Shown: one piece after another, positions 1,790-15,555 of the stretch
Layout: each line of letters begins with the position of its first letter
Numbering within the stretch: position 1 is the first letter of the stretch
NCBI GenBank assembly: GCA_951406725.2
Contig: OX597819.1
Span: 110,174,001 to 110,238,000, forward strand
DNA: 64,000 nt
Source: Octopus vulgaris
Taxonomy: Eukaryota
Direction of reading: 5' to 3'
The notes under the pieces: generated by a model
What the model saw: only the letters and a program-made list of their open reading frames with translations
Database searches by the model: none
What the model was told of the DNA's origin: nothing
Made by a program: the position numbers and the translations under genes

Positions 1790-2645
1790 TTAGTCTACCA
1801 ACTTTGGTATATCTTCGCACGACACCTTGTCTTTATCCTTTTTCTTTCTGCACAATTTCCCCAGAAAACTTTTCTTTCTCCCCTGTGATGCGTTGCTTTT
1901 CCCAGACTTAACGCTCTCTTGTGACTTAAAAGCAACTGAGTTAACACTCTCCTGCGATTTAGTGAAAGCCTTTTTTCTTTGGCTTTCGTTGGACTCCGCA
2001 GATGTTTCTCGATCTGTCGGTGGATTTACTTCTATTATGCCCTCTGCACTGCACCTCGGAAATGGTATTTCGCATCCATTTGAAGGTTCTCGGCGGCATG
2101 CCTGTTTGCACATACTTTCGTCAGGTTTAGGATCATTTGTGGAACTAGCTCCTGACTTAACGCTGGCGTATGACTCCTTCGAAACTTCTCGGCTGGCTGA
2201 CGCCTTTTTCGACTTTTTACCTTTTTTCTTGGGTGTTTCTTCTTGGTCATAAGGAAAGCACCTAGAACCTGACTTAGCGCCGTCTTGCGGGACTTCTTGG
2301 GTGGATTGCTTTTTGGACTTTTTGCCTTTTTTCTTTGGTAGTATATCTGAAAAGCATCTTCTCTCCGATCTCTTACTTCCGTCTTGTGATTCTTTAGATG
2401 ATTCTCGGCTGCATTGCTTTTTGGATTTTTTGCCCTTTTTCGGTGGCGATTCTTCTTCTTCTTGAAAGGTTATTCCGGCCATTCTTAAATAGACCAAGTA
2501 CCTGAGTACTGCAGTAAATATATCTGCTTTGCCACGGAATTCCGCGTTGGTATAAGATGGCAAAAGAGGTACGAGAAGGACGGAAGCGAATACTTTTATC
2601 ATGCAATCAGGCTTTGGAGTTTTCTTGGAGGCCAACCGGTACAAA
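1790..2645 (-). CDS. BCR/ABR-like terminal exon B (distal): RhoGAP C-terminus plus long K/S/E-rich repetitive tail
   Basis: Acceptor ttttttcacag|tttgtac, phase 2; 284 open codons to TAA; homologous to exon A (39/64 aa identical by hand count); KKGKKSKK repeated three times. Confidence 0.8.
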
Positions 2646-3479
2646 CTGTGAAAAAAATTGAAAAAAAAAAATAGAGACGGGATAGTCACAGCTAGAGTGT
2701 CTTTAGTTATAGGTCTGCTCAATTAGAGCTGACCTGGGACTAAACAACAACACCTACAACAACAGCAGCGTAAACAATAATAACATCTACAGCAACAACG
2801 TCAAAAACAATAACTAAAGGTTAGAAGGAAATCATAAGTTTGTTACGTGAAAATGTCGACTTGAATGGGAACAAACTGAGGAATATATTTTGTACGTGAA
2901 CCTCATAGGTTTTTATTTATGACCCAAATACACACACAAACACACACACACTAAAAACTATACGTGTGCGTGCGCTTTCTGGAATACGCACATATTGCTG
3001 TCATACTCATGCATACAGAGAATACCTAGTTAGATATATTGATCTATGATACACACATAGACAAATATAATCACGCTTTCACACGTACCTCCACTTATAT
3101 GTCGATCAAAATAGCCATTCGTGAAGGACTAATAATAGCCAGAATCAAATAACGGACTTTTAGTATTAAAAAACAGCGAGAAAATGTGTGTGTGTGCGCA
3201 TACAAACACACAAACACACACACATACACACACACACACACACACGCATCGTGTAAAATTTCAATTTTAGTGTTGAGACACTTCTTTGACAGGCAGAGTT
3301 TTACTCCTTGGATCCATTTGCATTGGTCTTTGGCTTCTCCAGACCTTCCATTTAATGCCATTGGTGGATTTTCTGTTTTTGTAAAAGCAGATAAGGCCTG
3401 CAAATATGATGACTCTCCAGTCATCTGGATGTTTGAAGAATGACAAATGGTTATTGGATCTTCATTTAAATAGACTTTC

Positions 3480-4600
3480 GGTGGTGCGTATATAACGTTT
3501 ATATCTCCACTTTTCGATTCGGCGTGGTTGAGGTGATCTTTGCTTTATATGCGACTGATCTGGTGCTACTTGTTTTGTCTAAAGAACGTTTATCTTTCTT
3601 TCTACATGAACTTTTTATTTCCAATTGCCATTTTTTCCCCTTGTGTTACTGATTCCGTATAGAGAGCGCAGTAGTAACTGATTTTTAGGTGCATCGGTTG
3701 AAGCTCTTATAAAGACAGTGTACTGGGAAATACTTGTCTAAAATGCCAGTTATGTCCTTCGTAGATTAGTTTTAACGTTTAAAGAGAAATGTGTTGCGAA
3801 CAAGATGATTTTACTGATATTATTACTGGATCTTTTGGTTCTGGTGGTGGATATAGACTTACTTTTCCTTGAGGCTGCTGCTTATCAGGACTCTGTTATG
3901 GTAGGGATTGTGTTGTCAAAACTCTCTTTACAGGAGAACAGATTGGAAATGCTAAGACTTACGTTGGAAATGTGCTTTATAAAGATTATAGTGAGTGGTA
4001 GGAATGTTTATTAAGATAACTTAATTATTCATTTGGCTTATGAAAACTTTTATAGATGCTTGATTTTAGATTCAATAATGTGGCTAAGAAGTCTACTTTC
4101 ATTAAATTAATGTCTCGACGTAAACCGATGGTGTAAATTAAAATATCTCTATCTCTGCTGTCTAATATATTAATCTGACTAAATTACATCTAGCAGGTAT
4201 CTAGATATTGCAAGGAAAGTATCTCATGCCTAACATCAAATATGGGTGACTTTAGCTCAAGGCTTATTTGTAATATTCCCCATGTGTTGTTATTACATTC
4301 TAGTTAAAGATTTAGATTTCACATGCAATTTTGTCAGCTGAAAAATCATATAAATACATCTCATTATGCGTACTTCTCACTGCTCTTTGGCAGCTAACCA
4401 GCTTGGGTAAAACGAGTCTAAATTCAATGATCTTGTCGACGTTTCGATGGATTCGACAAACACAAATGACTAAATTTGATATAAATTGCCAACTATTCTA
4501 TCATAATGACCATTGTTGGTATAGCTACTTTGGCAAGCACTTAATTAGCAAGTTAGATAACATGGCCAATTCATGCAACTTCGGATTTTAAAATGATTGA
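3480..4600 (-). mobile_element. Heavily decayed Penelope-like retroelement fragment
   Basis: Remnant motifs on the minus strand resemble RT KVDFL and the Cys-rich CRKKDKxSLDK...SVAYKA lead-in to GIY-YIG; many stops. Confidence 0.5.
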
Positions 4601-4700
4601 ATCATTACATTGATGGACAGAACACCAAAGCCAAACTGCGGAAAACTCCTCTCACAATCGAATAAGTGCGCCAGAACATTAAAATATACCGATAAAGATA

Positions 4701-12920: not shown

Positions 12921-12948
12921 CTGACGAAGAGCTCCGCTCGAAACGTTA
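12921..12948 (+). ncRNA. Minimal hammerhead ribozyme motif (Penelope terminal-repeat type)
   Basis: CTGACGA-a-GAGC-tcc-GCTC-GAAACGTTA, with palindromic AACGTT stem III. Confidence 0.65.
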
Positions 12949-15209
12949 AATTCTCCTTTCTTTCCTTTCCTGAGCGTCCAACATCACTATACTTGTTCTA
13001 CGTCCTCGCGCTGTTGTGTTTTCTCTTTGTGTTTTCATGTTTGGATTAACTTCATATATATATATATACACACATATAGAAGTTATATATATATATATAT
13101 TACTCCAGATGTAGTAAACGCGAAATCATCGGTGATTTAGCTGCGACCATAGGGAGTTTGTCTCCCTTGTCAGTTCATTAAGATAATGCTTTTGTTGGCT
13201 ACTGAGTTGTTTTGACTCTTATTTCTAGCATTACTGGTACCTTGTTCACTTCAGTGACGTATATATATTTTTGCCTTTAGGTTGTAAAATTGCGAATTAG
13301 CCACCCATATTACAAGTTATATATATATATATGTATACATGTATCGATGTATATGTATTTAAATGTGTATGTCTATTGTATTTTTATGTGTACACACACA
13401 CATACACTAACACACAGACGAGCATACAGAAACTAACTTAAAAACTAAACGAATCAACGAAGAAATCGCTATGCGACAGTCTGGGACTTGTAAAGGAAGT
13501 CTCTCAAATCACGCCCTTTATGTTACTTGGAACGTATGAGATAATATAACGATAGATACACCGAAAAATTAGTATGATAACGTAAGGGCGTCTCTGATCA
13601 TAAATATAAGTGTAACTACAGACTGGTGCAACCCTCCTTTACTCGCATTTGTTTCTGCAAAGCCCTTTAAAAAATGCTTCCATGAGATTTTTTCTGAGAT
13701 GCATTTTCGATAGATTACTATAATTGTAATCTTATTTTTAAAAATTATGAAGAATTTCGGATAATTTTGTCTACTTTCCTAATTGTTTAGTCGTAATTCT
13801 CTTTAAAATGAATGATATTTTGCAGAATTTGTAAGTGTAAATTTCTAAAGTTGTTTCAAGGATATACATAAGACAAAAACACATGGAGAAATGCTAAAGC
13901 TACAGATTTAATGTTGATAGTCGGAACCAGAAAGAAGCTAGTGAGAGAACCATCTGAAACTTCCTCAATATATATTTCTTTTCTAAATTTTACTGGCATA
14001 ATTGTGTTCTACACCAACCTCGAAATCCCATTTGTCCAACGTGTCATTTTAAAAATAATAATTTTAAAAGAGAGTTATGAGAAAATGAATTCGGGGAGAA
14101 ACGAATGATTTCAAGTCGCTGAAAATTTGTTCAACTTTTATCAGTACAAACGTAATTTACATTCCTAAAAACGCATCTCTTCACTATTTCATTAAAACAT
14201 ATGTGATGTTCAGAAAGTCATGCGGAAACAAAGTGGTGACCAGGACCACCAACTTGTAGATATACCCTATACTTGATCAATATTGACTTATAAACTAAAC
14301 AAAAATAACGAGAAGAACAACAACATCGACAAAGACGATAAGAAGTAAATCTCGTATAACGCAGACCAAGATAACCATATAAAAGTAGGATGAGAAAGAA
14401 AATTTTCACCGAAAAATCGAAAAATATAACAAACAATAAAAAATAAATAAGAAGAGACTTCTTATCTAAATATATTGATTTTTATTTCTTTTTAAAGAAA
14501 TAGGTATTTTAAGAATAATGTTATTCTTGTCAATAGAAAGTGCTGTTTGTTCGAAAGTTAAAAATTTCATTTCAGTCGAATGTTTCAATTCTCCATGTTA
14601 AATCTTTACAACGCTGGATATTGTCCGTTCTGGGGGGATCATCAAAGCTCCTCTATTGGCTTTAGTTGTGGATTTATTTATACACATCTCACCCATGCAT
14701 GCATGCACTAATGTATTCATATATATTTATATATATATATATATATATATATATATATATATATATATATATATATATAATATATATATATACATGCATA
14801 CATATATATATATATATATAAACATATATATATTTACATATATATAAGTATATATATATATATATATATATATATATATATTCTTATATACAAACACACA
14901 TATATATATTTGTATGTATATATGTATATATATACATATACGTATACATATACATATGCGTCTGTGCATGCATATGTACGTGTCTGTCTGTTCTCCAATT
15001 ATATAAACATTTACTTATTGTTCACTTCAGTTTCGATGATTTAACTTGCCTTCCTTAGTCCGTCCAAACAGTACTTACATTGTCTTTTTTTCTTTTTTTT
15101 TTTTTTCTTTTCTGCCCTTTTTAGTAGATGGTGGCATCGATTCACGAGAACGTGACGCACTTCGCCCCGGTGCCTTTCCTGAATCGTTGGATGACTCATG
15201 GCTTTTGGA

Positions 15210-15555
15210 TTATACGGAACATTTCTGGTCTTCATTTCCAGGTTTTCCATCTTTTTTATCTTTTTTATCTTTTTTATCTTTTTTATCTTTTTTATCGTTT
15301 TTATCGTTTTTATCGTTTTTATCGTTTTTATCGTTTTTCTTTTTGTCTCCGCCTTCATTCTGCTCTTCATCGTCAAAGTCTATACCATGCATTCTCAGTT
15401 GTACGTAATACCTGAGCGCTGTAGCACATGTGTCGGTTTTGCTTTTGAATTCGTCACTGCTATACGATGGCAAATGAGGTATAAGGATAACGGAAGCAAA
15501 AACTTTTATCATGCCGTCAGGTTTCGGAATTTGCTTGGCGGCCAACAGGTACAAA
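15210..15555 (-). CDS. BCR/ABR-like terminal exon A (proximal): RhoGAP C-terminus plus (DKN/DKK)n tail
   Basis: Acceptor tttttcctag|tttgtac, phase 2; reads LYLLAAKQIPKPDGMIKVFASVILIP...ALRYYVQL; stop TAA at 15212-15210. Confidence 0.8.

Follow-up and report, generated by a model that had tools for sequence, protein, structure and literature searches.

Duplicated last exons and likely alternative tails in a BCR/ABR-derived octopus gene with a predicted catalytically dead RhoGAP domain

Homologous 3′-terminal exons associated with multiple polyadenylation (poly(A)) sites have been described, human capping protein beta (CAPZB) being an example given in the available part of that account (PMC3228551). 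The 3′ variable regions of Drosophila pip, PGRP-LC, and CG42235 have been linked to competing RNA pairings, as far as the accessible sections of two reports extend (PMC6191721; PMC9013439). At the protein level, human proteins with a RhoGAP domain that lacks the catalytic arginine (ARHGAP36, OCRL1, FAM13B, and DEP1/2) and the inactive BH domain of p85 are presented in the available portion of a further article (PMC8305018). The present analysis concerns a gene on the reverse strand of a 64,000-nucleotide (nt) stretch of Octopus vulgaris DNA (contig OX597819.1, positions 110,174,001 to 110,238,000; hereafter the window). It is probably a BCR/ABR-derived gene with two tandem last exons, proximal A and distal B, of which B is spliced and A likely so, the two likely placing alternative tails of 50 or 220 amino acids (aa) on a RhoGAP domain predicted to be dead.

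As far as the available text on capping protein beta goes, the likeness lies in duplicated last exons that share a frame and encode a structural part of the protein, the two being apparently mutually exclusive there; unlike in that gene, A and B differ greatly in length through unrelated-looking low-complexity tails, and the use of A is deduced indirectly, its poly(A) site being a candidate. With pip, PGRP-LC, and CG42235, as portrayed in the accessible sections, the locus has in common tandem 3′ cassettes, which in those genes are picked one at a time; it differs in consisting of only two single-exon cassettes and in yielding no docking pairing above shuffled controls. The best site predicted to pair with both duplicated intron ends scored −32.7, against −30.2 to −36.6 in 12 shuffles, in a weak scan that covered 601 windows of intron 30377-15700 in one genome without covariation data. 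No paper on this gene or its cluster was found in a search that did not cover the supplements of the octopus genome papers, which perhaps list these genes. The layout of duplicated last exons is thus an already known one, and the pseudo-enzyme context described below is missing from the sequence-only reading that preceded this work.

That reading had placed a splice donor at 30378 and acceptors at 15555 and 2645, all in phase 2, and these coordinates all hold. The donor reads AGCAAC/gtgagt after 30378, and the acceptors read cctag/TTTGTACC at 15555 (exon A) and cacag/TTTGTACC at 2645 (exon B). When spliced in phase 2 to the donor exon, A provides 114 open codons up to a stop at 15212-15210 and B provides 284 up to a stop at 1792-1790, each exon having its own stop codon, the same phase, and an intact acceptor. 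The gap-free identity over the first 64 aa, previously put at about 61%, was measured at 39/64 aa (60.9%) and 139/192 nt, and the shared upstream intron, previously estimated at about 100 nt, extends over approximately 135 nt (to 15693 and 2787). Together, exon and intron form a common DNA block of 341 columns at 71% identity (E 5e-52), with a gap-free intronic core of 68 nt, 47 of them identical. Because intron sequence is common to A and B, the duplication was genomic, as had been proposed, in tandem and inside one gene; a retrocopy origin of the duplicate last exon is ruled out. Copies of upstream exons between A and B had been said to be absent, and a test of seven upstream exons likewise located no copy of any of them between A and B or on either side, the protein matches having E values of at least 0.05 and the DNA matches all lying in the intronic flanks of the queries. 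A genome-wide search (2.8 Gb) with the first 67 aa of B returned A and B themselves, plus one match at E 9.7.

Both proposed junctions, 30378 to 2645 and 30378 to 15555, were looked for in contigs on exon B from four runs (X1, X3, X16, and X19): the first, which spans 27.7 kb, is seen in two of the four, and the second is suggested indirectly. The X1 contig, 641 letters long, has 107 letters on B and continues for another 534, of which the 30 displayed match the end of the donor exon. The 957-letter contig from X19, at depth 776, covers the whole of B and starts with 22 donor letters, short of the 31 required for calling a bridge. X3 gave two short pieces that stop short of the acceptor, and X16 gave no contig on B. 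Annotated proteins likewise end in exon B. The O. vulgaris model CAI9724816.1 (P0001), which corresponds to the window, includes this exon, although it skips four RhoGAP exons in 30378-42921 and takes a donor inside a 66-nt exon; a splice-site scan recovered the four, all with AG/GT ends and forming an in-frame chain. XP_036359371.1 of O. sinensis (P0038, 1,070 aa) has the B junction and equals the independently assembled chain at 440/440 compared residues. It is consequently exceedingly improbable that a separate paralogous gene owns B (or A), a finding that the sequence-only reading had named, for B, as one that would overturn it. Exon B alone is a gene in the O. bimaculoides annotation (XP_014782264.1), and the locus sits in a cluster of paralogues; against this, the donor-to-B junction occurs in the contigs and in P0038, the interval between A and B holds no upstream exons, the nearest paralogue runs on the other strand and has a last exon of its own, and the O. 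bimaculoides models of this gene, which is split in that annotation, are fragments.

The case for exon A comes from the way in which the X19 contig begins. Contig ends were modelled on a graph with an assumed k of 31 under six scenarios, and the 22 loose letters are informative because A and B share exactly their 8 first bases. Two of the six scenarios reproduce the 22 letters, both of them combining donor-to-A with donor-to-B splicing; the other predictions were 521 letters for B alone, 30 for an unspliced donor, 0 for an unspliced acceptor, and 0 for A joined to B. Under this model, the 22-letter start implies a donor-to-A branch in X19, and use of exon A in transcripts appears likely. The same prediction bears on a very unlikely alternative, in which A would be a frame-symmetric cassette inside the transcript (15555-15079, that is 477 nt with phase 2 at both ends), joined to B or an untranslated exon and acting as a poison exon that lowers expression via nonsense-mediated decay. 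Directly after 15079 comes a consensus GTAAGT in phase 2 (shuffle P 0.04), with the stop of A lying 131 nt upstream of that junction, as such a cassette would have it; however, the modelled 0 loose letters at 2645 for an A-to-B join, against the 22 seen, argue against A spliced on to B in X19, although rare or unstable forms could evade assembly, and poly(A)-like signals follow A.

Evolutionary comparison likewise favors the reading of two alternative last exons. Between the two exons, the synonymous rate (dS) is 0.82 and the nonsynonymous rate (dN) 0.25, and their ratio, which the sequence-only reading had suggested determining, is 0.31 (bootstrap 0.11-0.68), below 1, a value that does not identify which branch is under constraint. 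The proportion of synonymous differences fell to or below that of nonsynonymous differences in 0.3% of 2,000 resamples, and the alignment contains no indel, frameshift, or stop in 64 codons. B is itself well conserved, with its orthologues retaining 46/50 and 44/50 residues.

Several observations weigh against the use of both exons as functional alternatives. On the transcript side, no listed run containing B is on record as RNA, the run type itself being evidence neither way, and no read or contig lies on exon A, whose junction is represented by one contig end in one run. A sequence variant at 30400 or at the ninth base of B could mimic this contig end, and the X1 contig crosses the fork point unbroken at depth 3.6, A not being evident there. 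An A-type protein was absent from a word search limited to 62-200 aa, from the three matches of a B-based search, from six exact look-ups (0/6), and from the 11 of 33 profile matches whose sequences were examined; the O. sinensis cluster holds a single model of the gene, with B. On the evolutionary side, at sites that differ between the two exons, outgroup P0009 shares the residue of B in six cases and that of A in none (p 0.03), and five other outgroups lean to B likewise, without significance. The intron core, at 47/68 identical, is less diverged than the third codon positions (39/64), a pattern that may reflect either a constrained intron or an overestimated dS; with the intron as the neutral yardstick, a hand calculation raises the ratio to about 0.6. 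Finally, a neutral exon would keep 64 codons free of stops 8-19% of the time, with indels ignored.

Two alternatives draw on these points. The more extreme, that A is never used and that the 22-letter start is a sequence variant in X19, finds some backing in a signature confined to one run, an X1 contig lacking a fork, and the lack of direct evidence on A. It is nonetheless highly improbable, given that the break falls exactly where the 8 common bases predict, that the contig is unbroken through the whole of B, and that dN/dS is below 1. The other alternative, which we regard as unlikely though less so, holds that A is a relaxed or decaying duplicate, spliced at some level through its intact acceptor, and that only B makes a functional protein. 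Its microsatellite tail and early stop can be read as signs of decay, as can a frame that stays open for 44 codons beyond the stop, which would fit the truncation of a longer tail; of the two copies, A is more derived and lacks a protein record; the dN/dS interval, reaching 0.68, includes the value of about 0.5 expected with one neutral branch; and, at sites where A and B differ, the B orthologues carry the residue of B at 18/20 and 17/20. Conversely, the 64 codons of A have acquired neither frameshift nor stop, the 9-bp repeat unit keeps the frame, hydrophobic character is retained at 24 of 27 positions, and the A branch outlasted graph cleaning beside a contig of depth 776, which would suggest more than a trace product. 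Within the preferred reading of two functional last exons, the earlier description of A and B as interchangeable may nevertheless be too symmetrical: B, annotated and conserved, is likely the principal form and the one under constraint, and A, more derived and without a protein record, a younger-looking and faster-evolving one.

The gene that carries these exons exhibits the DH-PH-C2-RhoGAP order of the BCR/ABR family. In P0038, the C2 and RhoGAP domains exceed their Pfam cut-offs (RhoGAP at residues 666-809, with 33 bits against a cut-off of 24.5). The DH domain (RhoGEF, residues 148-295) stays below its own, at 14.6 against 27.6 bits, so that its exchange activity may have been lost as well; its presence is backed by a fold search. 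Both the start codon and the exons for DH fall outside the window, up to C6:110254542. In the fold search, DH-PH structures came out on top and no RhoGAP was among the matches listed; hence the GAP assignment rests on Pfam, an alignment to ARHGAP12, and a profile built from RhoGAP pieces of octopus. In the Atlas, BCR/ABR clusters score 0.93-0.94, and BCR/ABR-named proteins are among the profile-search matches. A search with residues 100-650 of P0001 (length window 478-1523 aa) returned only the query itself among the matches listed. Compared with BCR/ABR, the domain order is the same, but identity to canonical homologues is about 20%, the arginine finger and other determinants are lost, the DH domain is under the cut-off, basic tails have been added, and the last exon is duplicated.

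The RhoGAP domain is predicted from its sequence to be catalytically dead. In p50RhoGAP numbering, Arg282 and Lys319 form the functional pair and Arg323, Asn391, Val394, and Pro398 are determinants of binding, according to the available part of the source (PMC8305018). All six of the determinants checked differ in this gene. Under the correspondence that we assume between these numbers and the motifs of the octopus protein, the residues at R282, K319, R323, N391, V394, and P398 are Val, Leu, Ser, Gly (in A) or Cys (in B), Lys, and Ser; at V394, the residue in BCR homologues is Thr. The alignment behind this comparison comprised 23 of the 33 profile matches plus P0038 and P0039, ten matches, mostly fragments, being omitted, and R, K, R, N, and P are kept in all 20 aligned homologues from outside the cluster. 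The finger arginine aligns to Val both against ARHGAP12 (6gvc_R) and against the octopus RhoGAP profile. The gene thus resembles ARHGAP36, OCRL1, FAM13B, and DEP1/2 in possessing a RhoGAP fold without the catalytic arginine, and p85 in that binding determinants are missing too (PMC8305018); unlike these proteins, it has an independent origin from a BCR-like ancestor and belongs to a four-gene octopus cluster.

This degeneracy changes what the last exon can be expected to do. The proposal that it supplies the final RhoGAP helices is borne out for B in an AlphaFold model, where B starts at residue 786 and forms helices at 798-815 and 818-840, followed by a disordered tail (residues 855-1070) with a predicted local distance difference test score below 50. 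Of the 27 large hydrophobic residues of B, 24 are still hydrophobic in A, and either exon should close the helical fold so that both proteins fold, as modelled for B and as the comparison of hydrophobic residues suggests for A. Pfam returned nothing meaningful for exons A or B alone, and single-exon searches of solved structures gave chance matches or none. The domain being a pseudo-GAP that lacks the arginine finger, a helix swap is not predicted to alter GTP hydrolysis: the part of the earlier proposal in which the exon provides the last helices stands, and any catalytic tuning does not follow. The last-exon switch likely swaps tails on a scaffold rather than tuning GAP catalysis.

The two tails are much as first described, with 50 aa in A on a 9-bp in-frame repeat (DKN/DKK, about 15249-15347) and 220 aa in B with three KKGKKSKK units. 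Their net charges are +5 over 50 aa, which makes A nearly neutral, and +24 over 220 aa, respectively. Tail A ends in KCSV; judged by the CaaX motif rule, a CaaX ending was rejected, the cysteine standing third from the end. Relative to the window at 1848, the X19 contig differs in the tail of B by two substitutions and an insertion of 3 bases that preserves the frame. Behind the stop of A, neither the open frame (shuffle P 0.07) nor the donor-like word (0.04) is significant alone, and homology of this frame to the tail of B was not significant at the protein or DNA level (110 of 500 shuffles match the score); it may be what is left of a longer tail, or part of a frame-symmetric cassette. A T-rich stretch lies downstream of the AATAAA at 14486.

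These features suggest how the choice between the last exons might be made. Most likely, the donor at 30378 would be joined to A and the transcript cleaved at a poly(A) site further downstream, or else transcription would read through 12.5 kb to B, the outcome being set by competition with the acceptor and poly(A) site of A. The GAP surface being degenerate in both forms, a putative functional difference, such as the change of localisation or partners proposed earlier, should lie in the tails. A strongly basic tail such as that of B would be suited to acidic membranes or nuclear import. A broader scenario is doubtful and offered as speculation: octopods would have turned BCR into four genes for dead DH-PH-C2-GAP scaffolds, in one of which a regulated last-exon switch between a polybasic and a short, charge-balanced tail relocates the scaffold by tissue or stage. 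If the cluster proteins are dead enzymes that serve as scaffolds or decoys, they would constitute a novelty in octopod signalling.

The wider locus informs the ancestry of the exon. C6:109981601-110254542 (109.98-110.26 Mb), which includes the window, contains a cluster of BCR-like genes, four in number, divergent, and arranged tail to tail in two pairs, with homologous proteins in O. bimaculoides and O. sinensis; neither the finger nor the conserved lysine is found in any of five proteins from the four genes. Each of the three neighbouring paralogues has a single last exon with an AG acceptor, the same phase, and no basic tail. A and B are identical at 36/58 aa, whereas they match the nearest neighbour at 11/58 and 13/58; since they are closest to each other, this gene alone has the duplication and the tails. 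From these comparisons we infer an ancestral gene with one last exon at the phase-2 position, in which the exon and a short piece of intron were presumably duplicated after the split from the three neighbours. A tree with very long branches to the cluster genes was excluded from rooting and dating. The locus offers a compact case of the origin of new tails, in which the neighbours exhibit the state without a basic tail, B a conserved, repeat-built tail, and A an in-frame microsatellite tail. The annotation records found contain B only or a split gene, and some cluster genes are named plainly as breakpoint cluster region proteins. Elsewhere on the same chromosome, C6:30818126-30834063 matches both C2 and RhoGAP, keeps the LKLYFRE motif intact, and is likely, by these sequence matches, the canonical BCR/ABR gene. 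The features of the gene within the window are collected in Table 1.

Table 1. Features of the gene and its two last exons, in window coordinates
Feature	Position	Strand	Remarks
Distal last exon B	1790..2645	-	64 RhoGAP-completing codons and 220-aa disordered basic/Ser tail; open frame, contig junction, P0038 and P0001
Duplicated intron end, B copy	2646..2787	-	Pyrimidine tract, cAG acceptor
Candidate poly(A) signals for A	14481..14678	-	AATAAA at 14678 and 14486; from sequence only
Post-stop stretch of A	15079..15209	-	44 further open S/K-rich codons, then donor-like GTAAGT after 15079
Proximal last exon A	15210..15555	-	64 homologous codons and 50-aa tail; likely use, from 22-letter contig start
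Duplicated intron end, A copy	15556..15693	-	Pyrimidine tract, tAG acceptor
Common penultimate exon, 103 nt	30378..30480	-	Phase-2 donor; the loose contig end at 2645 matches its terminus
RhoGAP exon, 135 nt	33480..33614	-	LKLYFRE-type motif, conserved Lys and Arg replaced by Leu and Ser
RhoGAP exon, 78 nt	36385..36462	-	Arginine-finger position Val, codon 36439-36437, P0038 residue 688
First RhoGAP-helix exon, 62 nt	37543..37604	-
Two C2-RhoGAP linking exons	41582..42921	-	42921-42856, 41724-41582
C2-domain exon, approximate ends	44722..44934	-	Pfam PF00168, E 7.8e-07
Upstream PH/C2-region exons, approximate	50148..62857	-	62857-62747, 61952-61884, 59400-59285, 56078-55914, 50234-50148

Other features of the window and its surroundings are of less direct concern. 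On the opposite (+) strand, L006:9293-9736, L007:8835-9251, and L008:9402-9998 are exons of the upstream neighbour, which we take from its motifs to resemble a TRMT5-type tRNA methyltransferase. The intronic stretches 4838-5514, 6444-7428, 16813-17376, 21570-22654, 31759-33334, 34373-34870, and 39249-39962 presumably derive from mobile elements, looking like mariner/Tc1/pogo transposases, Penelope-type reverse transcriptase (RT)-GIY-YIG elements, and an RTE-type long interspersed element. The introns also contain an inverted pair at 51058-51438 and 54447-54826 (381 nt, 97% identity) and direct pairs at 38812-39453 (306 nt, 96%) and 47730-48487 (233 nt, 97%).

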